Assembly: GCA_973895155.1 (NCBI GenBank)
Contig: OZ316892.1
Coordinates: forward strand, 1,987,223 to 2,051,222
Origin: Marsupella aquatica
Lineage: Eukaryota > Plantae > Marchantiophyta
Direction: 5' to 3'
DNA: 64,000 nucleotides
Shown here: in pieces, positions 22,801 through 64,000 of the stretch
Numbering within the stretch: the stretch's first letter is position 1
Layout: each line of letters begins with the position of its first letter
Translations under genes and position numbers: made by a program
The notes under the pieces: generated by a model
What the model saw: the letters and a program-made list of their open reading frames with translations, nothing else
Database searches by the model: none
What the model was told of the DNA's origin: nothing

Positions 22801-24868
22801 GTCTTAAAATATATCCTTAGTTATCTTGAAAACTGCCTTGTTCTTATAGAGAGGTCGGTCTGTAGACTAATCATTAATGCCTTCACTCTGATGGTCACAT
22901 CGATCGGACCCATACTTGATCTGACTCCTATGCTAGTTGAGTTGAATTGAATCCAATCGAGTGTTCTTTAGTCATCAGAAATCGAGTGTTCTTTAGTCCT
23001 CTTTTTTGGGCACTGATAGATATTGTAATCTTTGCTCACAGGTGGACGAGAATGGATACAATCCTACCTGGAGCGCAATAGGCTATTTTGGTCCTGATCC
23101 CCAGGCTTCATCCCCAAAGCCCCTGGAAGGAAAAGTGCTAGACACAGCAGAGAACTCCAAAGAGAAGCTGATAACATTCCTTCGTGACGGAGGTTTTACT
23201 CTCTTAAATGACGTGTCCCATCTCGACAAACTTGCCCATAGCACCCGAAGTGGAAGTGACCAGCCACAGAGTAGAATCGGTATCAAATGTGATGTGGTGG
23301 TCGTGGGTTCAGGATCGGGAGGAGGTGTGATAGCAGGTGCTCTAGCCCAAGCTGGACACAAAGTACTCGTTTTGGAGAAGGGTGGCTACTTTGCTAGAGA
23401 TGACTTGAGCTTACTAGAGGTGCCAAGCATGGATGCAATGTACGAAGGTAGAGGTTTGCTGAGAACAGTTGATGGTCATGTATCCTTGCTGGCTGGAGCA
23501 ACTGTGGGAGGAGGATCAACTATAAACTGGAGTGCTGCATTGCCAACACCAGAACATGTAAGGCAGGAGTGGGCAAAAGATCATAGGCTCTCTATGTTTG
23601 CCACACAGAAGTATCAGGATGCTTTGGATAAGGTCTGGACACGGGCATCCGCGAATTCTACCTGTGATTACCCGAGCTTTCAGAACCAAGCCCTCACGAT
23701 TGGCTGCAAGAAGTTGGGGTATGACATCGGCGAGGTCGACAGAAATGTTCGTGGTGAACACTCATGCGGGTGGTGCAATCTGGGATGTAAAACTGGGGAG
23801 AAGCAGGCCACTTCGGAGACATGGTTGGTGGATGCAGTCCAGGCTGGAGCATTAATTCTCTCCAATTGTGTGGCCCAAGAAGTTCTGCACAAAGAGGACT
23901 ATCGTTGCAAGAAGGGCAGGAAGGCAGTGGGAGTGATTGCAAAATGTGGGGGCGGGGAAGAAGATGATCTAACCGTGTATGTGGAAGCAGCAGTGACAGT
24001 GGTTTGCGGAGGGTCGCTCAACACTCCTCCCCTGCTCCTTAGAAGTGGTCTTAGAAATCCCAACATCGGCCGCCATCTACATTTGCATCCTGTGGTGATC
24101 GGGTGGGGATATTTTCCCGAGGGAACAGGCCCTGCAGGCAAATCATATGAAGGTGGGATAATTAGTGCAGTTTCCAAAGAGGCAGCAAACTGGAATTCCT
24201 CCGGTTATGGTGCCCTCCTTGAAGTTCCCGCCCTTCGCCCTGCCACGTTTGCTAGCTTCATGCCTTCAAGATCTGCTGCTGATCACAAAAGGAGGATGAG
24301 GAAGTACTCTCGCTATTCCTGCTTCATCGTCCTCACCCGTGATCGAGGGAGTGGACGGGTGGCTCTAAACAAAAGCAAGGAACGGGAGATCACATACTCT
24401 GTCTCCCGTGAAGATGAGGCTAGCATGTTCCACGGTATGGAGAAGGGGCTGAGGGCTATGGTGGCAGCTGGGGCAGAAGAGGTGGGTGGTTTCCACATTG
24501 CATGGGAGACCTTTTCTGTCAAGGCCAGAGATTACTCTACTCTGGAGGAAGACTTCAAGAAATTTCTGGACGGTCTTAGGGAGAGGGGGCTACAAGGGGC
24601 CAAAACTCCCATTGCCTCAGCTCATCAAATGGGTTCTTGTCGGATGGGTGTTAACAGCAAGGATTCGGCAGTGGATGCGAGCTGTGAGACATGGGAAGTT
24701 GAAGATCTATTCGTCGGAGACGCCAGCGTGTTTCCCACAGCCTCGGGAGCAAATCCGATGATAACAGTACAAACGATTGCATTCTGCACTGCGCAAAACA
24801 TCATACTAAAGCTTCAGGATAGGAGATTCAATGAGGGTGGAGAAACGATTCCCGGTACTGGAAGTTGA
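16898..24868 (+). CDS. Long-chain fatty alcohol oxidase (GMC oxidoreductase, FAO-type), exons 16898-17155, 18575-18844, 23042-24868
   Basis: N-terminal LAAMCDTFVPS and LxxxLGTLLL motifs, FAD-binding VVVVGSGSGGGV, GATVGGGSTINW, C-terminal SAHQMGSCRMG and DASVFPTASGANPM. Both introns are GT-AG in phase 0. Confidence 0.93.
19776..21065 (-). CDS. Protein disulfide isomerase, P5/PDIA6 (plant PDIL2) type; intronless CDS nested antisense in FAO intron 2
   Basis: Signal peptide MAMGQRRRLQCVVTLLLLQFSGFAMG-LYG, two WCGHC thioredoxin domains, a b-type domain, and acidic tail EPWDGKDGQLIEEDEFSLDELMATE*. The likely start is the ATG at 21065. Confidence 0.95.
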   Translation of the reverse strand: MAMGQRRRLQCVVTLLLLQFSGFAMGLYGPSSDVVQLSPANFKSKVLNADGIVLVEFFAPWCGHCKALTPEWEKAAKALKGIVTIAALDADAHQSLAQEYGIKGFPTIKVFGAGKQPLDYQGPREAKGIVDYALGQVKSLAQERLSGKSGAGSKKSSSKSASVELTSSNFDELVLQSTDIWLVEFYAPWCGHCKKLAPEWKTAAGNLKGKVKLGQVDCDADKSLMSKYGVKGFPTILFFGADKSNPSPYEGGRVASDIQSFALRQLEENAVTPEVVELTGPDVLDSKCSSAAICFVTFLPDILDSGAEGRNKYVNTLQAIAEKFKRSAYSYVWAAAGQQSALEKAVDVGGYGYPALVAVNTKKGLYNPLRSAFELDAVVNFVKEAGRGGKGNMLLKGEISIAQTEPWDGKDGQLIEEDEFSLDELMATE

Positions 24869-26814: not shown

Positions 26815-27130
26815 CCTCACATTCCTCAAGCAGCTGTAACCAGCGATACCATTCTCCATTCCTCTTCACATTTTTTCAACGCATATATCCAGCTCCAGTA
26901 CTATCCTTCATTTGTCTTCACATTCCTCCTCTTCAAGCATATACCCAGCTCCAGTACTATCCTTCATTTGTCTTCTCTGCGCTAGGCAGTAAGCGCCATT
27001 ACATTCCTCCGTTTTTCTCTACATTACTCAATTGATCTAAACATTCAGCTCTGCCGTTCGTCTTCACATTCCTCTTAGGATCGAGCTCATCAGTACCATC
27101 CTCCATTCCTCTTCGCATTCTTCAAGATCT
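26815..27130. repeat. Pyrimidine-rich degenerate tandem repeat directly upstream of the monooxygenase
   Basis: Recurrent cacattcctc(t) and ccagctccagtactatccttcatttgtcttc units. Confidence 0.75.
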
Positions 27131-27150
27131 CCACATCAAGAGCCAGCAGT

Positions 27151-28449
27151 ATGGCACTTCCGATGAACGCCAACTTCTCAGTAGGCATCATTGGCGCAGG
27201 CCTTGGCGGCCTCCAACTCGCCCGTGTCCTCCAACTGCGCGGAATCCACAGCACTGTCTTCGAACGGGAGGCCTCCCTCGTCTCGAGAGATCAGGGCGGC
27301 GTGCTAGACCTCCACCCCGAATCCGGCCAGCGAGCTCTCCAAATCGCTGGACTGCTGGACCATTTCAATAAAATCGCACACCCGGAGGCGGACGCCATGA
27401 GGATCGTCGACAAGAGGGGCAATGTGACTTTCGACGATGAGGAGATGGATTTTGGGCAGGGATCCGTGGAGACACCGATAGAGGAACAGCAGCAAGGGGA
27501 GGAACATCAAGAAGGTCCACCGCCGAATGCCAGGCCGGAAGTGGACCGTGGAGAGCTGCGGCAAATTCTGCTCGATTCGCTTGTTCCCAACACGATCAAG
27601 TGGGGGCACAATTTATCCTTCTGTGAACTCATCTGCAATGGAAAAGTTGAGCTGGTCTTCTCCACAGAAGCATCACCACAAAGAGTAACAGCAGTCTTCG
27701 ACATGGTGGTAGGCGCGGATGGGACATGGTCTCGCGTCCGACCACTCCTCTCCCCCGCCAAGCCAGAGTACACAGGAGTGTCATTCGTCGACCTTCAGAT
27801 TGGGGATGTCGATGGCGCATTCCCAGAGGTGGCTAAATTAGTAGGAAGAGGCAGTCTCTTCGCATTGGGGGACGACAGGGCCCTCATTGCTCAGCGGAAC
27901 AGCGGCGGGAAGGTGAGAGTCTACGTTGCGTTCCGTGTTCCATTCTCCTGGGCTGCACCATCATCTGGGATAGCCCTCCTCGTCGCGCAGCAGCAATTCG
28001 CCAAAGTGCAAGAGTACCTCCTGACGGAATTTGCCGACTGGAGCGACACTTTGAGGGCCATGATTTCGTCGGCTGATTTGGTGAATTCGACCTTTGCAGT
28101 GCGGCCTCTGATGACACTGCCCTCGGAACATGTGTGGGAGAGCATTGGGAAAGTGACTTTGATAGGCGATGCGGCTCATGTGATGTCGCCGTTTGCAGGA
28201 GAGGGTGCGAATCTCGCAATGCTTGATGGGGCAGAGTTGGGGGAGACGATTGCCAATTGGCGTGACGGGGATGGGGAGAGGTCTTTGGTGGACGTTATTG
28301 GGGACTTCGAGAGGAGAATGCTGGCGAGGTCCAAGGAGAAATCGGAGGAATCGATCAACAATCAGAATTTGTTTATGGGTGACAATGCGGCGGAGAGAGC
28401 GGGGAATTTGATGCGGGATCTCATGTCCAGGGGCCCTCCTCCTGCTTGA
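27151..28449 (+). CDS. FAD-dependent monooxygenase, TetX-like family, intronless (432 aa)
   Basis: IIGAGLGG FAD motif, RDQGGVLDLHPESGQ, RPEVDRGELRQILLDSL, VVGADG.WSRVR and LIGDAAHVMSPFAGEGANLAMLDG, all characteristic of TetX-related group A flavin monooxygenases. Confidence 0.9.
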   Translation: MALPMNANFSVGIIGAGLGGLQLARVLQLRGIHSTVFEREASLVSRDQGGVLDLHPESGQRALQIAGLLDHFNKIAHPEADAMRIVDKRGNVTFDDEEMDFGQGSVETPIEEQQQGEEHQEGPPPNARPEVDRGELRQILLDSLVPNTIKWGHNLSFCELICNGKVELVFSTEASPQRVTAVFDMVVGADGTWSRVRPLLSPAKPEYTGVSFVDLQIGDVDGAFPEVAKLVGRGSLFALGDDRALIAQRNSGGKVRVYVAFRVPFSWAAPSSGIALLVAQQQFAKVQEYLLTEFADWSDTLRAMISSADLVNSTFAVRPLMTLPSEHVWESIGKVTLIGDAAHVMSPFAGEGANLAMLDGAELGETIANWRDGDGERSLVDVIGDFERRMLARSKEKSEESINNQNLFMGDNAAERAGNLMRDLMSRGPPPA

Positions 28450-44449: not shown

Positions 44450-47400
44450 ATGGCTATGGAGATGACGAAAGACTGGTTGTTAGAGCGATGCAAGGCTCAA
44501 GGGTTGTATCGAACACCAAACCTTAATAATTCGTTGTACCTCCAGTGTCAAGCTTTTTCTGAAATCCAAAATCTGGATGAATACACGGTAAGAACTGTAG
44601 TCTGACCTCTCTTACATCCGTGCTTTGGCATTTTCGTTTTCTGATCCAAATAGATGTTTGGCCCAACGAGTTTAGTGGATCTGAAGTATTCGTTTCAGTC
44701 GTACCCCATGCCCAGTCCTTTTGTTATCAGTGAATTTTCGAAAGCAATTGATTTCTGAGTTATGCCGCTCTTCAATCAACGAGAATTTTTTTTGCTGTTA
44801 ACTTTCTGGATTTCAGTTTCTTGAATTTGGTCAAAGTATAGTTGGTTCACAGGTTTGCAATCAACGGTCCTGTGTGCATTTCGATTCTAATTTAGAGCTT
44901 GAATTGTTGACTATAGGGTGTAACGCAATTGCATCTTGAGGAAAATTGCATCGAAAGTCTCAATGGAGTGCAACCACTGAAACAACTACAATGCTTGTAA
45001 GCATGAATTTGTTTCAAATGGTACTACGTTTTGAATATGGTTGAGATGTTCACGAATCAACTGATCACTTCACAAGAAAGCGAGTCCATCGTCATGAACC
45101 TTAAAGTCGAGTGTGTCCATCTTTGTTTATCGTCATAAAATCGTTTTTTGTGATTAAGAACTCACCTGGCCAGTCTCTGGAGTCGTTCCAGGTACCTGCA
45201 CAAGAATTTTGTTCGAGCTATTGATCACCTTGAAGAACTACAGGATTTGGACACACTCGACTTAAGGTTTGTCGTCGCATCTACGCTTGTAGAATTAATG
45301 CGAATTACGTTTAAGAGTTGTGTCCATTACCTGATGCGTAGGAAACTCTAGCTCTAACCATGTTCATTGCGGTCATAGGTCAAGCACTTGCAAAACTTTG
45401 ATTCGGGTCATGTCAACATTTTTGGGACCATTCAACACCTTTTCCAGATCCGATCGATTGTCCTAATTGATGAACTGGGTTCAAGCCCAGGAGATTCGCT
45501 GCAAACTATGAACTTGCAGGAAAATGGAAAGTTTTCCGATTTAAGAATGACTTCCTGACTTGATTCTAATTTCGCTTTGGTACGAATCGGCTGGGAGCAC
45601 AGCCATAACTGTCTGTCAACGCTCGACAACTTATCAAAGTGTTCGAAATTGAGGGTTTTGGTGGTATCACACAACCTCCTTGACTCGGTGGCCTCCATTG
45701 AACATCTTACCCTCTGTCCTTCAATTATGTGAGTTCCTGAAGACCCTCTCTCTTTCGTGTTCCTTGGGTCCTAATCCACATAATTTTGTCTTGCCTATGC
45801 TGACTTTAAGGATGGTCTTCAGAAGTAGAATGACAACTCTGTTGTATTACTATTCAATGGTTGGCACATTGGGGAGTGCAGGATTTTAGATCTTTCTCAC
45901 AATAAATTGAAGGATGGAGATGGTGTTCTTGGTGTAGCAAAGGGCCTTGCTAACTTGACAGTACTTTACTTGTCAGGAAATCCCTTTGTCGCGGTCTTTC
46001 CTCACTATCGAAAGGTTAGTCTGATCTGAGCCTCCCGTGAACTAACACCATTCTTGAGAGAAAGAAGGAAGGAAGAGGAAGGTAGGGAAGGAATTCGTGT
46101 TGGGTTAGGACTTCAAATCGAAATCGATAATCGTCTGGTGAAGCAAAGCATCTAAGTACATACCCAACTTTAGAAAGTTCTATAATAATCTTTGTTCCAA
46201 AATATACCTCTGTTCCAAAATATCTAATAAAATTACAACCTTTATTCTTGGAAGGAACTGAAATTGCGCTCTTTTTAATTGGAGAGATGTATCCAGAAGC
46301 TGATTGGCACTTTAGATAAACTCAACCACTTGGATGATAAGCCAGTTTTCTGGGACGAGCGTCGATATGCAGAAGCATGGTGAGGACTTTTGCATGTGTT
46401 CGGAAGTTGCTGCAAATTTCTGAAATAATTTCCACTGTTTGTGGTTGTACATTAGTTTTCTTTACATATGTTTTGGCAAGCGATATTTAAAAATTGCTGT
46501 CATTCAATTTAGTTAATCTCTTCTTACTGGAATATGTAGATTGGTTGTTGTCATTCAACTTGGTTAATCTCTTCATAGTGCTGACGGCTCATTTCAAATG
46601 CTTGGCTGAGTGCTTGCCGGCAGGATGAGGGGAGGTCAAGACGAAGAGAGGCGAGAACGAGATCGTGTTCGTGAAATGCGAGCAACAGAAGAAACTTTAC
46701 AGTTTGAAGGTACTTTCGAGTTTTCCTCAATCCTGTCGTGAACTACTTCACCCTCTTCAAAAAGCCATTTTGATTGAGGAATTTCTCTCCTTTGAAGTTC
46801 AGGACCGTAGCCCTTCACTTTGGTTACCCATATGGTTGAAGCAATTCCTTTCTTTCGAAGATGAGGTCCTTGTGACTTGGTGACTGATGTGTCTGGAAAA
46901 GTTCCTTCACTGCCACCCATGTGGTTGAAGAAATTCCTCTGGTCCGAAGATGAGGTCCTCGACACTTGGTGACAGATGCGTCTGGAAAAGTTCTTTCACT
47001 GTACAGATCAGACGTCTCTTCCCCATCCATGCCCACTCGGATAGAAAAGAAAACACATTTCTGACAAAAGTAGACTCGTAGTACATCTGCGATCTTCAGC
47101 TTTCAGTTTCGACTAGGCTCTTTTGCAGCCGTATAGTGTTGTCCCTTATCTCAATCGGGCATGGCTTTGAATCAAAATTAATTAACTCTTCATGAAGTGT
47201 CTGATTGCATGCTATTCATTCTTTCATTAGCGAGTCCTCAGCTGAACCGAATATTGTCTGCGTTCTTTAAATTGGACGAGCAGCAATGCGACAACTGAGA
47301 TCTCAGGCTATGGAGGAGCGCCAGTATGTAGCACATCGTCCAATGCTACAATTCACCCCTGAAGAGCTTGGACAGGATGTGGAGTCGCTGGGGAGCCCTG

Positions 47401-48452
47401 ACTACATTGACCAAGCCTCAATTAGGAAGATCGAGGTCCAGGATATAGAAACTGGACTAAGGACCCTTCCATCCCCTTCTGCCAAGGTTGACCAAGGTCA
47501 AGAACGGGAAGGATGCTCTACTTCATACTCACAGGTGGAAGGTGTTTATTCTATGGAACATGACTTAATGCTAGCACAAGACGTATGTCAGCAATGGACA
47601 GCTACTTGTTCCATGGATCGTGATTCAATGCTTGCACACGACACAAATCAACAGCGGGAAACACCTACCGAACATGACTCAATGATAGTACAGGACTTAA
47701 ATCAACGATGGGAAGCAGATAATTCGATGGAACATGACTCCATGCTTGCTCAAGACCCACATCAACAATGCTACACCCAAAGATTGAATGAACGAGGATC
47801 TACCGTGTATTCCCAGGGTGAAGAAGAATGTCGATGTTCGTCACGGTCAACTGAGGGAAAGAAGGCCGAATTCTCCACCACATCTCCAAACCTAGAACTG
47901 AACTCCATGCAGCATGAGCCAATGGAAGAGATGGTAATCAAAACGTGGCCTGCAGGTTGTGCATCGATGCTCCAGGATCTAAGTGCAATTTCTTTCCCTG
48001 CGTGGGAGTCTCGATCCCAGGTAATGATTGAAGTGCCTATGGCGAACACTACCAAAGGCAACAATGACCATCATGAAGGGAATCCCAGCGTCGATACGTG
48101 TCAGGCATGTGAGCCGACCGACAAGCAGGGAGCTTCCTCGCCACCACCACAAGAACTAGAGAATGATTCACTTGAGTGGAATAGATACTACGACAACCCC
48201 AGCTTTTGTGAGGGACAACAATATGATGGCAATTTTCTCCTTTCTCTGCAGGCAATGAGCAATATCGAGCCAAACTTTAACAACGGAAAACTAAAAAGTA
48301 ACTCGAGCTTTTGTGGACAACAAATTGATGACAACTTCCTCCTTTCTATGCATAAAATTAATGATATCGAACCAAGCTGCACTAAAGGCACGTTACGTGC
48401 CAAATTCAGTGACTCAAATGAGCATGAACGTGACCCGGAAACTGTTTGCTAA
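44450..48452 (+). CDS. DNAAF1: Dynein axonemal assembly factor 1 (ODA7/LRRC50-like LRR protein), ~8 exons with a long low-complexity C-terminal exon
   Basis: Spliced: MAMEMTKDWLLERCKAQGLYRTPNLNNSLYLQCQAFSEIQNLDEYT|GVTQLHLEENCIESL..|YLHKNFVRAIDHLEELQDLDTLDLS|HNCL..|ILDLSHNKL..LYLSGNPF..HYRK|KLIGTLDKLNHLDDKPVFWDERRYAEAW|MRGGQDEERRER, then the terminal exon 47284-48452. SDS22-type LRRs and an LRRcap are present. Confidence 0.88.
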
Positions 48453-48565: not shown

Positions 48566-49119
48566 ATTTTGAAACAAGGAAGTTGTACCAAACTACCTAC
48601 CTAGAATTGTAACGTCTTGAAATGTAAGTCATCAACTTTTCACCTTAGACAGCTCCATAGAATTGAAGACACTAAGTAAGCATCCAAATTGTCCTGGATA
48701 CAATCCAATACGACTAGGTGTTATGACACAGGAAATCAGAACTAATAATCAGAGTGCACATTGCAAAAAGTATTGAAGCGCAATATCCAGAAGACAACCT
48801 GTCTCGAAACCTTAAATATGCAATGTATGGACTGCATTGTGAGTAAGATCACGAAGCTTTCAGCAATGATTCTATAATTACACTGAAGACCTGTGCTTTG
48901 GAGATCTTCATGAAAGTTACTCATGTGGTTGGGAAATAATCATTTAGGAACTTACCTTATTCTAATCGTTGCCTTCGACGCCCTAGATTCGTCGAGAGGA
49001 CTTCCAGAGATCCTTTGCCTCTTCTGGAATCACTCACCAAGAGCCTAAATTGGCGAACTGGTGACTATCATGTAGTCAACTATCAACAAGGACACTATGA
49101 CTAATGATGGGGAGGCCTT

Positions 49120-52073
49120 CTAGCCTATGTAAAACATGATTGCAAGATAAGACAACACCAAGAATGCGGCCAATCGAGCTCTTTCTCTGTCAAGTCTTGT
49201 TCTGGCTACATCTTCGTGCCTCACAACAGGGATTGTGTCCAAAAGAGACTCTTGCTCACTGCTAAGGGATGATTCCTGTCTGGGAATTGTGTCTAAAGGG
49301 GGCCCTTGCTCGCTGACAAGGGAGGATTGCTCGCTGGGAATAGATTGCTTGCTGAGAAGCCTTTGAATTTTGGCTAGCTTGTTTTTACATTCAATATCTC
49401 GAGGTAGCCACTGGAGCACGTTGCTCAACTTCTCAATGGCGTCATGAAATTCTACAGGATCAGCGTTGGCGTGCTGCAGGGCTTCCTCTCTGTATCTTTT
49501 GCGACGCTCACGAAATTGTAATTCCTGTTCTGGGAAGGCTCTAAACAACTTCGATCTTGTCGTGATGTTATCACATAAGATGCCAAATTTTATGTTGCGG
49601 TCATAGGGAGATCTGCTCATTCCATGGTCAAGAATGGTCCATCTATCATATGTAAAGCCATCTGAGCACGTGACAGGGTCGCACATCTTTTCTGCAGTAA
49701 TTGGGTCATCGAACCAGTCATCCATATCATCTGCAATCATTTGAAAGAATGCATCACTATTTCCACTAGAAACAACCTGGAGCTCCCCAACCTAACATTG
49801 AACATCAGCTCTGCACTGGCCAAAAGAAGAATGTACACGTTAAGAGATTTGTTTCCTTACGCCCTCAGCCTACTACTTCCATTGAACATCCTTAACCTAC
49901 CCTTCTACTTGGAAAGAACCAATAAAGTGCTTAGTATCGTACGATTGCACACATCAGCTGTACCATTGTCTTGCAGTTTCTTGTGGTGGTGTTCTCCACT
50001 GGTTGATTCCTCCAAAGCCTGGAGCTCCTTCTCTGGAAGAGCTTTGTAAACCAATTTCTGCTTCAACCTCTGTGCCTTATCCAAAGCAAGGTAAGTTTGC
50101 TCCCATTCATCTTCATTATCTTGTGTCCTCAAGTACGTTCCCAAAACTTCTAGTGTTAGCGGTAGCCCTTCACACAGCTTTACGATTGCTTGCACTGTCC
50201 CTGTAAACCCGAGGAATGATGGTATTGTACAGTTTGGAAGTGCATGGTTCATAAAGAGTTCCTCAGCACAATTGTCTTTTAGTCGTTTGACCTCATATAC
50301 ACGACTCAACTTACGGAGAAGTTCTCGATCACGGGATGTAAGAATATAACGACTTTCTGCAGATGCAATATTAACTATTTCTGATAGAAGTTTTCCATCA
50401 CGTTCAGTAGAGATGTCATCTAAAGCAAGTAGCAAAGGTTTATCTTTCAATACAGACCAATCAGGTTGCGTTTCAATCTTCTTCCCAAGACAATACATCT
50501 GTTTCCACACTTCCTCCTTTAGGTTCTGAAGGTCGCCCTCGATAAGCTTCACATTAGAGACAAAACAACTATAGTCAAATTCCGGTCCCTGTTCGTTAAA
50601 GACTGCCTTTGCGAGGGTCGTCTTGCCTATTCCTCCAATTCCCGTGAGACCGACTGCGGCAACTTCATTGAGCCTGCCTATGACCCGCTTCACCTGAATA
50701 TCAATACCAACTGCGAACTTTGGCATTTCTTGATAGTTTTCTTCCTAGGACACTCTGCCGTCTTCCTGGGTTGCAACAACAGGCGTTGTCAGTGACATTT
50801 GTGCTTCCGATATGGACTATTTCTAAAGAGTTTCGAAGCCCTACCATTGGAGCTGAACACAATTTATTCGTGAGAGTTACGAGTCAGAAAAGCGTACCTC
50901 GATGTATCAGAAATCTGAGCGAATCATGTACGGAATATTAATTTATCACTTTGCTATTTGTCCATATCCAATTTTTCTTGTAGGAACTCCATTCTACAAA
51001 CGTTCTCATCATCAAACTAAGGTGATTCTTATACTTATTACACAAACAAATGAGGCTGAATTCCCTCACCTCGGTATCCCTGGCAATGTTGTCGAGGAAG
51101 TCCTTAAGCACACAGAAGCTTTCTGAGGTTTTGCTCCTTGGTCTGCTAATTGTAAAGTGGTCTACTCCCGGAACCATTTTGAACTTGTGTCCACCCTGTG
51201 CGGATGCCTCCGGTACTAGGACATCTTCAATTACGCCCTGCTCAAGACGGGCGAAATTCCACTTATCAATCTCAGGGCTTTGCTAATCTCCATCACAGGC
51301 AAACTTGTAAAAAGTGGACAATTGAACAGCACCTCGATGCATAATGAGGCATACTCCAATAAGAATGCATCAAATATAGCCAGCGTGCAATCATAAATCA
51401 AACTAAAGATAAGAGGTTGCAACTTTACCAAATTTGTAGGGAGAGTTTCCCCAATTCCAGCGATCAGCCACTTGTTCAACTCAGCGAGCTTATCGAACCT
51501 GGCTTTCAGCTGAACTGGGTGATCTTTCAGTGCTTTGTAGTAATTCAAGAGAGGAACGTCCATTGTATCGCCCAACTGGTCTACAACTGGGCTCCCCAAA
51601 TGTGGAGTGGCGTAGTAAAACATCCCTCTCAGGTTCTTGAACAATTTCTCCAACTTAGCCTTTTGGAACCCTTGATTCCAGATGTGGCGAGATTTATCAA
51701 CTTGGTGGCATACTTGCTTCATGACCAAGCCGCCAATACCGTGTCCAACGAGTATAACAGGACAGTGAGGTACTTGCCCGATGTTCCCCAGTAGAAGATC
51801 CGACACGAGGATTTCTCCGATAAGCTCCAAGTCAATTTTCTTGTCTGAGCTCGGTCCCAGGTACCCAATGTAAGAGGCAGAAAGCACATGAGCTCCAGGA
51901 AACTCTTCAACCAACCAGGTTTGTGGCCAGATACAAGACCCATCTCCACTTTCCCAGGTCAACAAATGTGCATCTGAGTAGTCCCCACCTAGTTTGTGGA
52001 TGCCATGGAAAAACAAGATCTGTATACTTGGTTTGCCTAGTGGCCTGCGCAATTCGTAGAGGTTGTCGCTCAC
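49120..52073 (-). CDS. NLR-related gene: alpha/beta-hydrolase, truncated NB-ARC, U-box-like domain, C-terminal TM helix; no LRRs; start exon unresolved; possibly pseudogenizing
   Basis: Hydrolase motifs ILFFHG, WPQTWL, ILVGHGIGG and FYYATPH (52073-51429, 51237-51070). NB-ARC motifs GIGGIGKTT, LLALDDI, SRYILTSRD and CEGLPL (~50744-49964). A phase-1 intron (49963-49731) joins DPITAEKMCDPVTCSDGFTYDR..SRSP (U-box-like), ending RLAAFLVLSYLAIMFYIG*. Confidence 0.8.
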
Positions 52074-52789
52074 CTGAGAAGAACCAATGACGCAGTCAGA
52101 AGCCTCAAAGTGCACTGAACCAATAACGGATGGAAATCTAACCAGAAAACACTCAAAGAGAGACAAGTAGGGAAGGTCTCCAAATGGTTCAAAAGACGAC
52201 GTAAGAGGCCGCAAAGGGAGTCTTCCAACGCAACGTCTTGGCCATAAGTCACGAACATTGCTGATTCACCATCAGCCTTGAAATCTTACAGTTCTATTAT
52301 CAATAGTGTAGAAGATTCTTGGTCACTTTAACTATCCACACAGATAGAATGATACACTAAGTTTCCTGAGGGACTGGACTCCGGAAAGATTACCTGAACG
52401 ATTCTCGTATACCCAGAAGAATGCGGCGAGTAGGAAGAACGTTGGAACTTCGTTGTGCTTCGCGAAATTTCCATGGACGATTGTTTACAACGGTCCCTGA
52501 TCTACTGAGAAGCACGCCTTGGGTGGAGAGTATGAAGTCATGTGCAACCACTCCGAGTACATGGGTTCGGCACGGCACGACATGATAGGGTTCAGTGGCG
52601 GCCTGTCCATGAAACGTCCTTTACAACGGGAGGATACTTGTACAGAGTATACTTACACACCCCATTCACGAGTTTCATGAGAGCTGCATCGAACTGAGTT
52701 CTGGTTGTAAAATGTACGGGTAAATCGGCATTGCTGAAGCCTGGGGCTAATAGTGGCTTGAAGTTTTGGTATTGTATAACTACCATGAA

Positions 52790-52950
52790 GTGATTCTCTG
52801 GAGGAAAGGAAAAGCTGTGGACATCAGGACTCACAGGGAAGCACAGGAAATTGAGTACTGTAATCAAAAGTGATTCTCTGGAGGAAAGGAAAAGCTGTGG
52901 CATGCAGTACATCAGGGACTCACAGGGAAGCACAGGAAATTGAGTACTGT
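52790..52950. repeat. Direct repeat (~75 bp x2) upstream of the NLR-like gene
   Basis: gtgattctctggaggaaaggaaaagctgtgg...catcagg.actcacagggaagcacaggaaattgagtactgta occurs twice. Confidence 0.88.
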
Positions 52951-53882
52951 AGTCAAAATAGGCTGATGTCATCAGCTCGCGGCAGTCCTTTAATTACTAC
53001 ATTGACATGAATCACGTTGATTCAAGCTTTGATTGGAGGACGGGAAACAGCTGAGTTGGATAACGGAATCTAGCCATTGTTTCATTCATAGATATATGCA
53101 CATTAAATGGACCCGTCCACATTCCATTCCTAAGGCCTCCCGAAGATTAAAACGGATTCTCTTGTGGAACGGATGGCTTTTCACGAACTCGTGCATGATG
53201 CCGCGTTGGGACATAGTCCCACTTTCGTGGAACTGAATGTTTGAACTCATGTCAACTGTTCATGCCTGGTTATCGAATAATTCGTTCAGCCAATATGTAA
53301 AGCGGGGCTGTCGAGAGAAGCTGTAGATCATGGCAAAAGCTTTTACGGGAAGTTTGAAACGACAACTTTGAAGAACAGGGATCATCCAGGGTACAACAGT
53401 AGCTCTGGAGTACATGTGGCATCATGCCTTTCTAGCTGACAGGGAATTCCCTTTGCCTCACCCCATGATTTCGAGCTCAAATAAATTCATCTAGGACGAA
53501 ATGGAGGTGGGCATTGCAACCTTAATCCTGGACCCTGGACTAGCTCGGAGGGTGATTTTGTGGGAGAATGATTTTGATGTTCTTTGACAACTCTTTCCAG
53601 GCGGATGGAATTAGTGTAGGTGGTTGATGACGAAGAGAATTTTGAACATAACTCCATCTTCTACAACTGTTGAGAGAAAGACGAGCATGCTCTCGGTCAA
53701 GCTAACTTATCCGTGGTAGTTCTGAAGTGAACTCCATATACACGTTGGCGACTGTCTTGTTGATGGTTAACTGAATTGCTATAAAATATATGTACATGGA
53801 CTTCGAAAATTTGGCATGATCCAGCTTGGCCGCCAAGAATACATAAATCTTCAGCTTAAATTGACGATATTTACATAATCAT

Positions 53883-56800
53883 TCAGGAAGCTCTTGATTT
53901 GGAAGGCCTCAACGGCTCATCCAATCTTTCATCGTTCCGTTTTGTTCTCCTGTTTAGTGGGCCCGAATCTGGGAAGACGAGTTCCCATGGTCCTTCGGAT
54001 GTTTTACTGAGCGAACACAGGGTTGTATCATCGACAGGAGGAAGCTTCAGCGTTGCCATCTCTCGTTGTTGATGAAGCTGCACCATTAGAACCAATATCA
54101 AATTCTCAGCTGAAGAAAGTGCAACAATGAATGAAAATCGACATGAATTGGCATTCGCATGTGGTACACGTGTATTCGTCATCATGCAGCTCCTACGCAA
54201 TGATGCCAAAAGGTAGCACTTTCGAACTCAATTTTGTGACAAATTACTACAGACTAATCCCACGTTTCCCAATGCGACATAACAGACTTGAGGCTTTCGG
54301 CAGACTCAGATTACAGGCGGCAGCCATTTTTTACCTCATCCACAGCTTTGTAAAGCTTCACAGCAGCTGAAGAATCTTCTGCAGATTCAAGGTGCGTTTC
54401 TTTCCACGCATTGACGACACCTTGTGATCTGCCCGATGGGTCCTATTCATTCACAAGTCCAACTCTAGTTAGAGCATACGTAAAACCCACCATTGTTTCT
54501 CGAGACGTGAGAAAGTGACGGCAGAGAAAGTGACGGCAGAATTTTTCTTTGTGACCATGAAAGGGAAAGTTGAGTCATTGAAATACCTGATCGATGAGAA
54601 GACGAGCTGATGAATGGAACACACCAATGTTTGCAAGTTGTTTCACTGCAGCTGTAAACATTCATCCGCAAATATTTCGATCTCGTGTCAATATCTGAGG
54701 ATTCTGCCTCGAACTTCTCACCAAAGCAACCCATGATTGGTCAGCAATCAAAAAAGATGCCCTGATGGACCCAATGGAGTGCACAACTTATAGGAACCCT
54801 AACATGTTGAGAAACTTGTACTAAGACGTAGTTGGTCTCCTTTAATACGTCACCTAAGAATGTTTCGCGCATCTGAGGATCCTTGCGACAGCTTCCCACC
54901 ATACTATTTACGAGAACATCCCGCTGCTCCTCACCCATAATGAGTCGCTTCCGATCATTGCTGTATTGTCCTCCTGCATTAACTTCCTGTCACAGACCAC
55001 GTAGGTTGGTAAGATACATCTCTAGTGCCATACATAAAACACATCCTCTTAGCTTCAATTCAAGCCTTACCTGGCAGCCACGTATATGCCTGATCAGCTG
55101 CGGAGAGCAATCATTGTTTTATGTTGTCACGTCCTCAAAAGTCTTAATCTCAGGCATTGGAAGAAATATCTCTCGGATAGAAAAAATTGTCGATGACATG
55201 CACGTATATCATTACCTTTAAACACTGCCAATCTATCTAGCTTCCCACAATGAGACGGTAAAGACGATACTTCAGACAGAAACCATTGGTACTTTTAGAG
55301 ATAAAAAAACAACCTGAATCAGTTTCGATTTTCGTCCCCAGAGCTTTAATTTCTTGATTACTTCAGTCCGCAGTTGTTGAAGTCTCCTCTTGCGCAGAGT
55401 TATTCTTTTTTGCTGAGGGCTTTCTCCCGTGTTACTCTTCTTCCTCTTGCTACGCGTATTGGGCAATTCTGTATCGTCTGGAGGATCAAATTCAGGAACC
55501 GAAAGACACGAAGGACCACTACATTGTTGATTTGCAGACGGCAAAGGTTGACGACAAGCATGAGGCAAATTTAGGCCATGTGGGTGGACATGGTTAGTAC
55601 TAGCCTGACTTAAATCATGAGGATGCTGTATCCTGTAACCAGGTCCTTGCTGTCCGTTTTCTTGCACGGTCAGTGGATTAGTTACATCGCTAGGGTGGCC
55701 AGATCTGAAATCTCTGGAGTGAGTTGATGAGAGAGGGCGAGGTGGCTTGCCAGAGGAGATGGGAGGGAGTTCGCTTTCTGGACGACAACGAGACCCTGTC
55801 GGAAGGCCAGCATCATCAACAGTGGCCGCAACGATTGAAAACTCCTCGCCAGTTTGTGTGGGAGGGGCCTGAACAGAAGCACTGGCCGAGGGGGGAAAGA
55901 CACGATGTACAGCCCCCAGAGATACTGAGTTTGTAGCCTGGAGAAGCTCATCAAATCTGAGTGGGCTAACCTGTGTGTAAGGCAGATGCAGACGATTTGC
56001 TGACATTGAAGGCGAGGAACCATTAGAAAGGCATGTGGAGAACTGAGATTTTAAATTGTTATGGACACTAGGAGAAGGATGGGGAAAGGGTATCTGCTGA
56101 ATCGCATCAATAGCTATATTTGCAGCACTATGGGTGGGAATGGACTCTGGGAGGCGACGTCTGGGCTCAGATTTCCTAGCCACAGCAGGTTGAATTGCCT
56201 GGAAATCCTCAGTACCAGGACTGGCAAGACTGTTAGGCTTGCGTCTGGCCATGTCCTTCCATTTGATCTTCCTCCCTCCGCTCACAAGGACACGTGTAGA
56301 GCTTCCATCCTTTAGTAAAAGTTCAACGGGAACCTCAATAGGAGTTCCTGGAAGTGAATTGGACAGGAAGACATCAGTGGTCCTAGATGTGGCCTTAGCC
56401 ATCCCATCCGTCGAGCAAGGTTCCTCAAAATATTCGGCCTCATGGGAAACTGCCACCGGGTCAGGTCCCTCTTGCGGTTCATCGATGACTTCCTTCTGAG
56501 AGGCAGCTATTGACTCAGTCTTCTTTTGATTGTCATCATTGGCTTCCTTTCGGGCTATTACCAACTGCTCGGTTGCCGCTTGAGGTTCATTGGTGACTTT
56601 GTTGAGGGAGGGTGCCAGCTCGGGTGCCTCTCGAGTATCATCGTTAAGCTCCTTGTGAGAGGATGCTGACAGCTGGGTTCTCTCTTCGGTGGCATCGATG
56701 GGTTCCATTTGGGAGGCTGCCACCAGCTCAGCTCCATCTTCGTTGTGATCAGTATCGTCCTTCTGGGCTGCTCCCACCAGCTCGGTTCCCTCGCTACAAT

Positions 56801-57497
56801 CATCATTGAGATCCTCCTTTTCACAGGCTGCAACCAGCTCAGTTCCCTGTTGAACGTTATCGCTGAGTTCCTGCTGGAAGCTTAGTTCTCGATTGCTTTT
56901 CTCGTGAAGATTATCGTTGGGATCCACGAGCTCCGTTTCCTCAGGAGTTTCATTAATGAGTTCCGGTTGAGAAGCACCCTCCAGCTCGGCTCCCTCTTGA
57001 GCATCACAGTTGACTTCCTTTCGTAAGGATTCAACGAGCTCCGTTCCCTCTAGGGTCTCGTCTCTGGGTTCCTCCTGGGAGGCTACCACAAGCTGGATGC
57101 TCTCTTCAGAAATGTCATTGAGGTCCCTCTGGGAGGCTGCCACCAGCTCAGTTTGCTCTTGAGTTAACCCAGTGCGTTCCTTGTGTGCGGCTAACACCAC
57201 TTCGGCTCCCTCACGAGGATCATTCTTGAGTTCCTTCTGTGAGGCTGCAACCAGCTCAGCCCCTCCTTGAGTGTCATCTCTGAGTTCGTGTTGAGAGGCT
57301 ACCACCAATTCAGTTCCCTCTTGAGTGTCCCTAACCACTTCTTGTTGGGAGACTACCACTAGCTCTGCTCCCTCTTCAGGATCATTGTTGAGTTCCTGCT
57401 GGGAAGCTACTACCAATTGGGTTCCCTCTTGAGGTTTGTCATTGGTTTCCATCAGGAAGGCTGCCACCACCTTTCCGGATTTCCCCGCAGCATCCAT
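53883..57497 (-). CDS. Uncharacterized protein with N-terminal acidic ~20-aa repeats, a disordered middle, a basic NLS-like stretch and short C-terminal exons
   Basis: 741-codon ORF with many EG(T/A)ELV(V/A)ASQxEL repeats and KRKK/RKRR. Downstream GT-AG-bounded coding blocks lie at ~54990-54854, ~54428-54335 and ~54078-53883. Confidence 0.65.
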
Positions 57498-59419: not shown

Positions 59420-62400
59420 TTCAGTAGAAACCGTACATCTGCCTCCCACCGACCCACACATGCTCCTACAATAATAGATCCAGGATCAATAAACAATTCC
59501 TCCCTGCCTTTAAAGGCTTGGTTCCATGGGCCAAGGGCAGGGAGTACAATCACTCCCTCTGACACCCCTGGGCCCAAATATGTTGTATTCCAAGGTACAC
59601 ACAGTATTTTAAATGTAGGTTAAAAAAAACCTTTACTTAGTCTTGTGAAAAAGGAAGTAAATGCTTGATAGGACCCTTGCCAAAACAAAATTTACGTGAT
59701 AGGCCCCTACTAAACCTTTGTTACAAACTAGGCCCCCCACAAAATTGTTGTTACCAACTAGGCCACCTACATAGTTTCCATACATATGGTTTTCATGCGG
59801 TGTCTAAAGGTATGGTCAACCATACATTTTCCACCGTAATCCATCACACGTTGGGTCACAATCCACCGAGCGTGCATTTATGCTTGAAGACATAATGGTT
59901 ATGTCTTCACATGGTTATAGAGTCTTAAAGGATTCACCGCTACACGATAGTGGGTTTGCACAACATGTCATGACATATAGTATCGTAGCCATAGTGTATC
60001 GAAAACATACAAGTCACCGGCAATGCATATGTGCAAGCTGCTAGCAACCAACATCCTGAGAAAAAAGTCCAATCACATTCACAAGTGCCAAGAAAAAGCA
60101 ACTGAGATGGTATGTACGTAGTGGAGGTGTAAACCTCTGTATCCCCCCCCAGACCACAATCAAAAGGAGGGCTGAAGAAAATTCAGGTAGCACGTGGAGC
60201 ACAGGAAGGGCAAAACCATAACCCTTCTGGCACCTGGGTAAGTTCAGGCCGAAGGCAGAAAAGATGGTACCCTCCATTGCAATTGTCACACAGCAGCATC
60301 TGGTCAGCATCATCAATTCGCAAACACACTTTGCAAGGGTAGTCCACAGGTGGAATCCAAGTAGAAGTCACAATGGTGGGATCCAGGTTAGGCAGATGAC
60401 AAGGGGCGCAATTCTTGGCATTGTCAGCAATTGTGCGCCCATCTGCCCCTTGTAACTCTAGCACTCCAGACGGTCGAATAGCTTTGACCCTGAGAATAGT
60501 GCGACTGGTAGAGGTGTCCAGGGTGTCGTTAGCTTGCCGCTGCAAGTACACAAAATCTCCCACTTCAAACTTCCTGACCTTGGGCTGAAAAGTGCCCCCT
60601 CGTGTGTGTGCATAACGCAGTGTGTCCCTGTGCTGTGTAATGGCCAAATTCTCCATGGCCATGGGCATAACCCTCCTGAATAGGGCAGCCCTCTCAGAGA
60701 TCACATCAGACCAAGTCACAGCTGAATCCAAGTCCACCACCTGAAGCATGTGAGAAGCAATAGTAGAAGGTGGAACTGGGTGACGACCAAACAACAAGAA
60801 GTAGGGAGAAAAGTTAGACAGGGATGCATGTCTGGACATCCTATACCCCATGGCAATGTAGGGTAAGGCCAGGTCCCAATCCTCCTTGTTTTTGGTGAGG
60901 CAGATCTTCCGAAGGCCCTTCTTGCATGTCTGAACCATGCGCTCTGCCAAGCCATCTGCCTGTGGGTGATCTCGTGATGTCCGGCGATGATCAATGAGAG
61001 CCTGATCAAGCAGCTCCTGGAACTCTCCTCTAAACTCTGAGCCCTGGTCAGTGAGACATTCTGCACAAGCTCCAAAGCGGCTGAGAACTTGTTGCAAGAA
61101 TGCCTGGCTGGTGCTACGGGAGGTCTTATCCGGCAATGCTACAAGTTCTATCCACTTGGAGAAATGCTCTATCATGATCATGATGTAGAGATTACCCCGA
61201 GATGTGAGGGGTATGTAATTCTCCAGCCAAATCACATGACCAACGATAAAACATGCCCTGAATAGGGAGTGGATGAAGTGTGGGTTGCCGAGATGTGAAA
61301 GAAGTCCTTACCCTATCACACTGCTCACACCGGGCAATAACATCTCGAACCTGGCCATGCATGCCTCTCCAATGATAATGGGGGACCAAGAGGCTATAAG
61401 TCCTCTTAACACCAAAATGACCAAGCTCAGAATGTACCTTACGGATAAGGCCAACCCTCTCATGAATGGGTGGAACCACCACTTCCCTGTCTGGCAAGCA
61501 GCGCACAAGATGATCTCCCTTCCACAATTAGCGCTTGGACCTTTGCTGAATTCGGTCTCTCTGGGCAGCAGTAACATGGGTGGGGTACTCCCCATCCTGC
61601 AGAAATCTCAGAGTGTCGCTGTCCTCCCATATGTCCACCACAGGTTGGTCAACAATGTAGCATGGCAGCAAAGCAAGATAGGTAGATGCATGAAATGTAG
61701 GCAGGGTGAAAACCTGGTCAAAATCCTGCCGTGCATCTGAGGGATCATCAGAGGCAATCAAAGGGCTGCGGGACATAGTGTCAGCATTTTGATGTGTCAC
61801 ACCAGGCCTATGAATTACCTCAAAATCATACTCCTGGAGTATGAGTGCCCAACGAGCAAGCTTGCCAGTAAGCTTGTCGTTGGTCATCAACCATTTCAAG
61901 GGCTGGTGGTCGGTGTAGAGAACAAACTTGGTCCCATAGAGGTAGGGCCTGTAATGTATGACAGCCCACACAACAGCAAGGCATTCACCCTCATAAGAAG
62001 AATAATGACTCTCTGCCTGATTGTTGCTCCTGGATGCATAGGCAATGACGTACTCTTTACCTTCCTCATCATGCTGGCCTAGAATGGCACCAATCCCAAG
62101 GGCACTCCAATCTGTGTGTAGCACAAAGACCTTGTTGAAATCAGGTCTTCTCAGCACTGGGTATTCTGAGAGCTTCTCCTTCAAAGTGGCAAATGTTGCC
62201 TCAACATCTGTACTCCATGTCCAAGTCACATTCTTTTTCAACAAAGCATACAATGGGTGTGCAATGGTACTGAAATCTTTGATGTAGATCCGGTAGTAAT
62301 TGCACAACCCAATAAAACTCCTCAAAGTGTGAACATCGGTAGGAGTGGGCATTTCCAAGATGGATACCACCTTGGCCCAGTGAGCCATGGTTCCATTTGG

Positions 62401-64000
62401 AAGAATGCGATGCCCAAGATATACGACTGATCTGACAGCAAATTCACACTTCTTGGGGTGTATGTTTAGGTTCACCTTCTTAAGCCTTATGAATAGCTCC
62501 TCAAGGTCAAGTAGATGCTGGTCAAATCCTTTGTTGTGGACCAACACATCATCAATGTAGCATTTCAGAAACTCAGCACCTTGAAGAACCTGGTCCATGA
62601 CTCTTTGAAAGAATATGGGCGCATTCTTCAAGCCAAATGGCATCACCAACCACTCCCATAGTTGGTTACTACCATGGAAAGTTGTTTTCTTGCGGTCCTT
62701 TGCAAGCAGCAAAATCTGGTTGAAGCCTTGCCTTAGATCCACAAGAGTGAAGATGTCTGAGTCTCCAATGCTGTCAAATAGCTCCTCTGGCCGCGGCATG
62801 GGGTACCTGTCCTGGGGTGTGACCAGGTTCAATGGCTTGTAGTCCCCACACATGCGCTTCTCTGTCCACAATCCACTGGAATCCTTCTTTGCTGGCATCA
62901 CTGTAGCTGCCGCAAAATCTGATGTAGATGGCTGAATAAGACCAGCTTCATAAAGCTCTTGGCACCTCTCATCCACCAGCTGCCACTCATGCTTACTCAA
63001 ACGGTGTCTCCGCCTAAAGATAGGTGTTTCATCAGCCAACTCAATGGAGAACTGCATAGTCTTGCACTTACCCAAGTCCTTCATAGAGAAAGCAAACACA
63101 TTCTCATGCTTGAGGAGCAAATTCAGCAGCTGGTCCCCGAGCTGGTCCTTCTGTCTTTTACTCAGGTGGTTGCCCATGATAAATGTGTAGTTGGCAACAC
63201 TAGGAATAGGACCTGATGTACTCATGCTTGAAGAGCCAGAAGTGCCAGCCTCTCCACTGTCCAAGCTGCTAGCATGCTGCTGATAAGGTGATGAGGCCTC
63301 TCCAAGGCCTGCTGTATCTGTTGCTCTGGTCTGATCCACACCATGAAACTCAGAAATAATGTCAGCCACATTACAAGGGACCTCCTCCCCCCCAACACTT
63401 GGACTGAAGCGGTGAGTGTTGAATAGAGGTAAGTGCACCTGGTCTGGATGCCATGTAGCAGCACTGTGGAGGGGTAGGGCTGGAGCTCCTAATGCTGGAG
63501 GAATGTACATCTGAAAAAGGATGCAAGTGACCAGAAGCCAAGTGAGAGCATTGAGATCCATTACCCTGCCAAGTAAAGCATTCCTGGCCAGCCTGGTGAT
63601 TTTGGTGTGACCTGTAGTACCGGGTTGGAAGCCCATAGCCCGTTCTCTCTCCTCAGGACTAGGTTCATCCCATGTACCGGTAGAATGTCGATAAACCAGC
63701 CCAGGACCATCACCCTGAAAAGCATGTGCACCTGGAAAGGACACAAATGTAGGCCAAGCAGCACGGGGTTGTCCAATGGTATTAGCTGGATACCAAGGTG
63801 CTGGCTCTTGCCGTGTAACTGGTTGGCAAGAACTGTCAGGATCCAAAATCTGGTCCACTGTAAGGTTAGTGTCCCTAGATGTGTGGTGAAGAGCCATCTC
63901 CAGCAAGGAAGGTGGTGCAAGGTTAGTCCAAAAGTTACGAAGACGATGTGCATAAGAACCACAGTGCACTGCATCAATGAGAAGGGGTGGTCCCAAGTAG
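59420..64000 (-). mobile_element. Ty3/Gypsy LTR retrotransposon (5' part outside the window) carrying a C5 DNA methyltransferase and a PHD finger
   Basis: Domain order RT-RNaseH-INT is Gypsy-type. The 3' LTR boundary is not resolved. Confidence 0.9.
60183..64000 (-). pseudogene. pol polyprotein: [DNMT C-terminal half]-RT-RNase H-integrase-PHD; in-frame stop at 61528-61530 and frameshift at ~61212
   Basis: RT: RMCGDY..LN, DLRQGFNQ, MPFGLKNAP, YIDD. RNase H: TDWS..GIG, YEGECLA, TDHQPL, NADTMSR. INT: H..GH...CEQC, DLAG, TDQGSEF, GLAER. PHD: CKVC..CDNC...H..C...WFCPSC. DNMT: IDAVHCGSYAHRLRNFWTNL, PEERERAMGF, RNALLGRVMD. Confidence 0.9.

Follow-up and report, generated by a model that had tools for sequence, protein, structure and literature searches.

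In a 64-kb stretch of the genome of the liverwort Marsupella aquatica (contig OZ316892.1 of assembly GCA_973895155.1, forward-strand positions 1,987,223 to 2,051,222; the whole stretch is called the window below), we identified a gene in which an alpha/beta-hydrolase head and an NB-ARC domain are followed by a U-box. We consider it probable, though by no means settled, that this gene belongs to the hydrolase–nucleotide-binding–leucine-rich repeat (HNL) lineage of receptors, that a U-box, a TPR-like unit and a predicted tail anchor replace most of the ARC2 subdomain and the leucine-rich repeats (LRRs), and that a TAG codon truncates the allele in the window to a product of likely 304 residues. 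The HNL class of liverworts was described by Xue et al. in 2012 (PMC3352924) and later received the name Hyd-NLR, NLR denoting a nucleotide-binding leucine-rich repeat receptor. The heads of two Marchantia hydrolase NLRs gave responses resembling the hypersensitive response in N. benthamiana (PMC11218826).

Exon structure and splicing

Coordinates are positions in the window, and the gene is read on the minus strand. Four exons, two for the hydrolase, one for the NB-ARC domain and a last one for the U-box, share one reading frame. Hydrolase exon 1 (51429..52073, 215 codons), recognized by DUF676/Abhydrolase_6 and tblastn matches and covered over 51428-51810 by a contig from sequencing run X1, is followed by a phase-0 GT-AG intron of 191 nt inside the hydrolase domain (51238..51428). 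Hydrolase exon 2 (51070..51237, 56 codons), which carries a conserved DHF motif, was placed by tblastn at 37-47% identity, by the family alignment and by the X1 contig. A second phase-0 GT-AG intron of 304 nt (50766..51069), with a CTGAC branch-point-like site about 27 nt before its acceptor, leads into the NB-ARC exon (49964..50765). This exon, identified by PF00931 and the HNL alignment, encodes NB, ARC1 and the first ARC2 helix and ends in phase 1. The third GT-AG intron (49731..49963, 233 nt, phase 1) joins it to the last exon (49730-49120), which starts in phase 1, encodes the U-box, the TPR-like unit, a linker and a terminal helix, and ends in a stop codon (49122-49120) directly after the hydrophobic helix. 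The 3' untranslated region (UTR) extends at least over 48987..49119, as the X1 contig reaches 48987.

The X1 contig (2128 nt), which comes from a relative and is about 92% identical to the window, joins all four exons. It aligns in the segments 51810-51428, 51236-51069, 50764-49964 and 49730-48987, with 165 of 2096 letters different and no indels. All three introns are absent from it; each joint is GT-AG on the minus strand, and the stretches skipped measure 191, 304 and 233 bases. The contig spans the junction 49964|49730 with at least 255 letters on each side, extends about 130 nt beyond the stop codon and contains no LRR. In the DNA runs X2 and X3, the sequence is continuous over the stretches skipped in X1. 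The hydrolase, NB-ARC and U-box exons are therefore one spliced molecule in a close relative, and the phase-compatible GT-AG intron (49963-49731) that the original prediction had proposed between the NB-ARC and U-box exons is removed exactly in this contig. Its proposed check, a search for sequence spanning 49964/49730, was answered by the same contig, which comes from a relative and whose label as RNA is a guess; none of the matching sequencing runs is on record as RNA, and only X1 gave spliced contigs.

The exon content of the original prediction held, but position 52073, the 5' limit of the stretch it described, is an internal acceptor and not the gene start, with a further exon proposed upstream. 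Enumeration of ATG and donor sites, followed by translation, gave a candidate first coding exon at 52394..52474 (ATG at 52474, 27 codons, Ser-rich, donor CAG|GTAATC, phase 0). Its end, RIVQ, together with VSDNLYELRRP of the next exon, resembles RIVRVNESVHELYRP, the N-terminus of P0008, a protein of the liverwort Calypogeia fissa. We preferred 52474-52394 because of this likeness and the CAG|GTAATC donor. An alternative first exon from the ATG at 52258, one of many other ATG/donor pairs enumerated, had only weak phase-0 donors and was set aside.

Hydrolase head and truncated NB-ARC domain

Hydrolase exon 1 matched the Pfam family DUF676 (putative serine esterase) with 23.3 bits against a cut-off of 20.3, and Abhydrolase_6 with 20.7 bits, under its cut-off of 26.3; a Pfam scan of hydrolase exon 2 by itself gave no match. 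In tblastn, the hydrolase exons matched the heads of liverwort HNL proteins at 35-51% identity, and they were also found with hydrolase–U-box (HU) and hydrolase–NB-U-box (HNU) queries, in agreement with the alpha/beta-hydrolase exons originally predicted. What that reading missed is the loss of the nucleophile serine: the motif reads GHGIGG, with a Gly codon at 51738-51740 where relatives carry Ser. Among relatives with a recognizable motif, the nucleophile position holds Ser in 12 + 5, Cys in 2 + 1 and Gly in 8. To judge from this residue, some HNL clades likely have non-catalytic hydrolase heads. Since loss of the serine recurs in HNL receptors, it need not signal decay of this copy. The Gly-bearing relatives (GHGFGG) are eight Riccia HNLs (P0022, P0026-P0029 and P0033-P0035); most Marchantia and Calypogeia HNLs checked keep the Ser, and three have Cys. 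Elsewhere in hydrolase exon 1, at 51885-51944 (SCIWPQTWLVEEFP motif), extra short contigs stack on a 45-60-base piece in all four runs, and read depth is two- to three-fold higher. This pattern suggests that many paralogous hydrolase-head genes in these genomes carry the SCIWPQTWLVEEFP motif.

The NB-ARC exon matched PF00931 with 88.8 bits (E 4.3e-25) over profile positions 4-229 of 248. It contains a P-loop (GIGGIGKT, 50642-50619 on the minus strand), a Walker B motif (LLLALDD) and GLPL; no MHD motif was found in the gene model. Its top matches were among the HNLs of Calypogeia, Marchantia and Riccia (35-47% identity). The alignment with C. fissa HNL P0011 (47% identity to residues 363-620) stops in the segment KVSYDGLKDVEKQMFLD of that protein; we read this segment as the first ARC2 helix. 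With homology to HNLs lost where ARC2 begins, the domain reads as truncated and not just short. Eight HNL queries in tblastn detected no ARC2 or LRR past the truncation point anywhere in the window, and Pfam found no LRR in the exons; an NB-ARC domain that ends shortly after GLPL with neither MHD nor LRR had been described in the original prediction, and it was recovered here. There is no second NLR or NB-ARC gene within the window.

U-box, TPR-like unit and terminal helix

The first 67 residues encoded by the last exon (49528..49730) matched the U-box family PF04564 with 32.2 bits against a cut-off of 21.4 (E 1.2e-7). We built an AlphaFold2 model of the last exon from 45 sequences, with a mean predicted local distance difference test (pLDDT) score of 87.4. 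Residues 1-130 scored above 93, the linker (131-170) 54-74 and the terminal helix (171-201) 92-97. In a Foldseek search, the 14 best matches in the Protein Data Bank (PDB) were all U-boxes (OsCIE1/PUB12, GmPUB13, E4B, CHIP and E4A), with 62-74 aligned columns and TM-scores of 0.51-0.70 on the target. A comparison independent of Foldseek (VIA) gave Z 8.7 for the Ufd2 U-box, with a root-mean-square deviation (rmsd) of 2.3 A over 66 residues, and Z 8.3 for both OsCIE1 and CHIP; across the U-box matches, rmsd was 2.3-2.9 A over 66-68 residues. The family profile matched the U-box of UBE4A at E 7e-8 and also matched that of UBE4B. The residues conserved in the family, DP(I), M-DPV and G-TYDRWT, are kept. 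A complete U-box fold is confirmed in the predicted structure, and the U-box-like exon of the original prediction is backed by both the Pfam profile and the fold.

The U-box is followed by a TPR-like three-helix unit (49339..49527; helices 67-88, 91-107 and 112-128) in which W107, D111 and C114 are conserved. Residues 77-130 resembled TPR proteins in the VIA comparison (Z 7.1-7.5, rmsd 1.2-1.5 A), a Z below 8 being weak for helical pieces. The three-helix unit always accompanies this U-box subtype. A Ser/Gln-rich linker of low confidence (49174..49338) carries a conserved IPVV-HEDV motif and a basic stretch. The protein ends in a hydrophobic helix of 17 residues, a predicted tail anchor (49123..49173), with no residue after it. 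With a mean Kyte-Doolittle value of 2.21, these residues (752-768) rank highest in the 768-residue model; the next value, 1.51, lies within the hydrolase fold. This hydrophobic segment at the extreme C-terminus is the single one, with no other membrane segment or signal peptide in the model, whose N-terminus is that of the proposed first exon. High hydropathy and a confidently modelled helix both agree with the terminal hydrophobic helix predicted at the outset. The tail was present in 11 of 13 relatives checked and absent from the Marchantia and Riccia homologues; in the part encoding the helix, the X1 differences among those listed are all silent.

A premature stop codon in the window allele

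The original prediction assumed an intact open frame and began the NB-ARC exon after an in-frame TAG, which it overlooked; the exon of the relative begins at 50765 instead. Read from 50765 in phase 0, the window gives GAA GAC GGC AGA GTG TCC TAG, so that with acceptor 50765 the NB-ARC exon has a stop (50745..50747, minus strand) as its seventh codon. The TAG is codon 278 of the four-exon reading, or codon 305 with the proposed exon 1, and it probably blocks translation of the NB-ARC domain, the U-box and the tail. This allele would likely yield a hydrolase-only product of 304 residues, counting that first exon.

At position 50747, X1 (depth 15/15) and the DNA run X5 (164/164) read G, which gives CAG; X3 has A, as the window does, and no difference from the window was seen in X2. 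In the family alignment, P0008 has sense residues across this segment. CAG in X1 and X5, together with these sense residues, indicates that TAG is a derived, segregating nonsense variant.

Relatives and origin of the architecture

A search with the last-exon protein found seven longer proteins, all from C. fissa. One of them, P0008 (824 aa), contains a hydrolase, an NB-ARC domain cut at the same point, a U-box, the helices, the linker and a terminal hydrophobic helix. P0246 (840 aa, C. fissa) has the same order and is 81% identical to P0008 over residues 470-720. P0007 (916 aa) has a similar order but keeps a short LRR before the U-box, and P0002-P0006 (499-575 aa) consist of hydrolase, U-box and tail, with no NB-ARC. 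These proteins stand in the public C. fissa annotation as 'unnamed protein product'. When residues 470-720 of P0008 were used as query, 25 matches were obtained, among which only P0008 itself and P0246 covered the stretch from NB to U-box. The search of bryophyte proteins for the same domain order, which had been suggested with the original prediction, was in this way answered by P0008 and P0246.

P0008 and P0246 are the nearest relatives of the window gene (52-54% identity in the NB-ARC domain, 66-69% in the U-box) and have its whole domain order: their NB-ARC domain breaks off at the same point, and the TPR-like unit, the terminal helix and the IPVV-HEDV motif are all present. They differ in that they belong to another genus, with about 42-69% identity per domain, keep GHS(V/I)GG at the nucleophile, lack a stop at the NB-ARC start and have a longer linker. 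In the full-length model of P0008, folded blocks for the hydrolase (20-310), the NB-ARC domain (325-540) and the U-box unit (590-714) precede the terminal helix and are joined by linkers of low confidence. The best PDB matches of this model were the Toll/interleukin-1 receptor (TIR)-type NLRs (TNLs) RPP1 and Roq1, then WRR4A, and then ZAR1 and other coiled-coil (CC)-type NLRs (CNLs). P0002-P0006 and P0248 (Logan-derived) share with the window gene an HNL-type hydrolase (45-48% identity) and the U-box cassette (62-64%), but have no NB-ARC; P0002-P0006 also share the tail, and their hydrolases fall in the same clade as that of the window. As a route to such hydrolase–U-box proteins, skipping of the NB-ARC exon was considered and rejected: the frame shifts and a stop arises 37 codons into the U-box exon.

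The U-box extends far beyond these genes. An exhaustive search of 1.84 billion representatives with the last-exon protein returned 113 matches at E<=1e-3, 64 of them at E<=1e-10, and most of the stronger ones span query residues of about 1-130, that is, the U-box and the three helices. Pfam analysis of 40 of the matches gave ARM, SPRY, protein kinase, EF-hand, TPR, WD40, ZZ and ubiquitin as partner domains. Ten matches were looked up, and the nine that could be named come from Calypogeia, Riccia, Marchantia (Mp3g13280) and the fern Adiantum. The U-box with its TPR-like unit is, on these matches, a widely shuffled cassette of liverworts and ferns. In one group, made up of P0143 (Marchantia Mp3g13280), P0142 and P0144 (Riccia) and P0146 and P0152 (Adiantum), the cassette lies about 220-320 residues into the protein and a common motif, TETE-FFADVLAN, precedes the U-box; the N-terminal regions had no Pfam match, and ARM, SPRY or kinase domains follow the cassette in some members. 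This group is an uncharacterized liverwort/fern U-box family. Another protein, P0129 (300 aa, Logan-derived), has two tandem U-box and TPR-like cassettes and then a hydrophobic tail.

We constructed trees for the three domains separately. In the hydrolase tree (29 rows, careful search), the window, P0008, five hydrolase–U-box proteins and the HNL P0014 form a clade with support 97/90 within the C. fissa HNL heads, and P0007 lies on a long branch outside it. The NB-ARC domain of the window is sister to that of P0008 (Shimodaira–Hasegawa-like approximate likelihood ratio test, SH-aLRT, 98), nested among the HNLs P0010-P0014. In the U-box tree, all hydrolase-linked U-boxes fall into one group of 18 rows (SH-aLRT 91), in which the window joins P0008 and P0246 (SH-aLRT 92). 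The first two trees support descent of the hydrolase and NB-ARC domains from the leafy-liverwort HNL lineage. The three together indicate that the hydrolase–NB-ARC–U-box form is older than the split between this organism and Calypogeia.

We infer that the gene arose by recombination, in an intron or in early ARC2, between an HNL gene and a liverwort/fern cassette of U-box and TPR-like unit, perhaps with the tail, and that this event predates the divergence of this organism and Calypogeia. A third junction in phase 1 inside early ARC2 would be expected if recombination joined an HNL front to a foreign back. The exon shuffling put forward in the original prediction fits this junction and the HNL descent, but the C. 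fissa models show that its outcome is not unique to the window.

Comparison with known receptors and ligases

The introns of HNL genes, lying within the hydrolase, between hydrolase and nucleotide-binding site (NBS) and between NBS and LRR, are all in phase 0 (PMC3352924). The window gene shares with this class a homologous hydrolase head and NB-ARC domain as well as the place and phase 0 of the first two introns. The similarity of the P0008 NB-ARC to the TNLs RPP1 and Roq1 is likewise in line with the affinity of HNLs and TNLs reported there (PMC3352924). By contrast, the window gene lacks the LRR, ARC2 and MHD, enters a U-box through a phase-1 third junction, ends in a C-terminal hydrophobic helix and has Gly for the nucleophile Ser.

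With plant U-box (PUB) proteins and UFD2/CHIP-type E3 ligases the window gene shares the U-box fold. It differs from them in partner domains and in the TPR-like three-helix unit, which is obligatory after a U-box of the window type. We know of no angiosperm U-box class with a hydrolase or NB-ARC partner.

A survey of NLRs with integrated domains (NLR-IDs; PMC4759884) does list U-boxes as NLR fusion partners in Brassica napus, B. rapa and Fragaria vesca, so that NB-ARC and U-box in one polypeptide is a feature in common. The Brassica and Fragaria fusions come from domain scans of angiosperm TNL or CNL genes and generally have an LRR (PMC4759884), whereas the window gene has neither LRR nor ARC2 and has a predicted membrane tail.

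We found no paper describing the order hydrolase, NB-ARC, U-box and tail. The word 'U-box' has no occurrence in the main text of PMC11218826. The original prediction did not recognize this order as described; it is new in that no description of it was found, but it was already present in the public C. fissa gene models P0008 and P0246. HNLs and angiosperm NLR–U-box fusions were known already.

Alternative explanations

The most serious rival concerns the stop codon. If splicing used the AG within the TAG as acceptor, the exon would begin at 50744 and lose 21 nt with the frame preserved. This would restore a 761-residue hydrolase–NB-ARC–U-box–tail protein, its frame open from the proposed ATG to a single stop. 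This allele would then be functional, a possibility of some weight that we nevertheless regard as the less probable one. It is favoured by four exons that are otherwise intact, with no indels relative to X1, and by the occurrence of the TAG allele in three runs (X2, X3 and the likely source of the window). However, the sole spliced contig uses 50765; the AG at 50766 is the first after the CTGAC site and a pyrimidine tract, while the 21 nt ahead of the TAG are purine-rich; and P0008 retains residues over the segment that would be skipped. At the other extreme, the gene might be a functionless chimera, a by-product of recombination in an NLR cluster that is decaying and being lost, with the premature TAG and the Gly at the nucleophile as its marks. 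The 49 listed differences from X1, out of 165, alter the residue in 27 codons and leave it unchanged in 19, and a Ty3/gypsy-type element lies close by, all of which would suit decay. Even so, the TAG is polymorphic and derived, two other runs having CAG, and one of the 27 changed codons is this TAG->CAG difference while none creates a stop. There are also no frameshifts over the 2096 aligned bases, the coding part diverges from X1 by about 7% vs about 13% in the 3' UTR, the U-box and tail are conserved, eight Riccia HNLs also carry the nucleophile Gly, and the architecture is retained in another genus in two paralogues. We regard decay as unlikely.

Equally doubtful in our view is an integrated-decoy role, in which the U-box would imitate host U-box ligases that pathogen effectors attack, and its perturbation would be signalled through the NB-ARC domain and hydrolase, possibly with a distant helper NLR. 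The Brassica and Fragaria fusions (PMC4759884) offer a precedent; the order in P0007 (hydrolase, NB-ARC, short LRR, U-box) puts the U-box where integrated domains usually sit, and an effector bound to a plant U-box (7c96, Avr1d:GmPUB13) was among the fold matches. An integrated-decoy NLR is an otherwise complete receptor, often with a paired helper, but the window gene, P0008 and P0246 are missing ARC2 and LRR, and the 64 kb contain no second NLR. Moreover, hydrolase-only proteins and many proteins that are not NLRs carry the cassette too, and its conserved residues (DP, M-DPV, G-TY-RWT) are retained as in a working domain. Least credible of all is a fusion created by faulty assembly or annotation, with the U-box exon belonging to a gene of its own further downstream. 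Databases do hold short proteins of 135-300 aa made of U-box and tail, and an in-frame ATG lies four codons before the acceptor of the U-box exon; against this, one contig crosses 49964|49730 at a canonical GT-AG intron, the order recurs in independent gene models of C. fissa, and P0008 is the nearest relative for both NB-ARC and U-box. We judge this very improbable.

Several points weigh against the reading we prefer, a truncated allele of an HNL-derived gene with a U-box and predicted tail anchor. Of the 73 positions in the Pfam U-box profile, only 3-42 are matched, the remainder of the domain depending on the predicted fold, and Foldseek gave weak E-values (2e-3 to 6e-2), as a domain of about 70 residues would lead one to expect. 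The tail anchor is a prediction from hydropathy and a modelled helix, and the exon at 52474-52394 is a candidate placed from sequence. As X1 is taken to be RNA by guess, a processed retrocopy in DNA is formally possible, and since contigs drop rare isoforms, some transcripts might still start the exon at 50744. The NB-ARC tree (43 rows) and the U-box tree (84 rows) are both quick trees. The 27 changed and 19 silent codons indicate only moderate constraint; moderate constraint is common for NLR genes. Finally, a switch role for an NB-ARC domain that has no ARC2 or LRR is speculative, as the usual logic of NLR autoinhibition and activation does not apply, and E3 activity, substrates, an immune role and membrane anchoring are all inferences.

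Proposed mechanism and significance

In intact (CAG) alleles and in orthologues, the C-terminal helix would insert the protein post-translationally into an endomembrane, leaving all else in the cytosol. NB and ARC1, with P-loop and Walker B intact and free of the MHD/LRR lock, could form a nucleotide-dependent oligomerization module. Oligomerization would cluster the U-boxes, which might then recruit an E2 and ubiquitinate proteins nearby at the membrane. The hydrolase head may act as an adaptor, an output or a cell-death-type signalling domain; it is probably not an enzyme in this copy.

Plant NLRs signal through CC pores and TIR NADases, and bryophytes also have poorly understood hydrolase and kinase heads. 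A bolder proposal, to which we give little credence at present, is that in leafy liverworts an NLR has become a ubiquitin ligase that is anchored in a membrane and switched by nucleotide, with TAG/CAG as a natural on/off allele. If it were true, an NB-ARC domain free of LRR and MHD would fire a U-box directly at the surface of an organelle or the endoplasmic reticulum (ER), and immune signalling of the STAND (signal transduction ATPases with numerous domains) type would be executed by ubiquitination and not by a pore or an NADase.

In the family found here, an E3-ligase domain and a predicted membrane anchor are attached directly to the switch module of an NLR. Two liverwort genera at least retain this architecture, and its exons are spliced into a single message. 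The family would offer a simple system for asking what the hydrolase head does, whether an NB-ARC domain can work with no LRR or MHD and how new immune architectures arise through intron recombination. Hydrolase–U-box, hydrolase–NB-U-box and hydrolase–NB-LRR-U-box proteins in one genome make up a natural domain-deletion series, and the TAG/CAG polymorphism a natural null for genetics.

Other features of the window

At 52788-52958, about 320-480 nt upstream of the proposed start codon and likely in the promoter region, lies a direct repeat in two copies, with matches of 33 nt (100%) and 43 nt (98%) at a spacing of 80-89 nt; Tandem Repeats Finder reported nothing on 52300-53300. Convergent with the 3' end of the gene is a 393-codon open frame (47271-48452, plus strand) with 'MEHDSMLAQD'-like repeat units and no Pfam match. 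Upstream of the gene lies a 741-codon open frame (55275-57497, minus strand) with no Pfam match and no usable Atlas match. The Ty3/gypsy-type element (60186-63999, minus strand) encodes a reverse transcriptase, RNase H, an integrase core and, C-terminal in the integrase, a PHD finger, and continues past the window end. Three further frames, each long and single-exon-like, encode a PDI-type thioredoxin protein (19779-21293, minus strand), a GMC oxidoreductase (22997-24865, plus strand) and an FAD-binding monooxygenase (27079-28446, plus strand).

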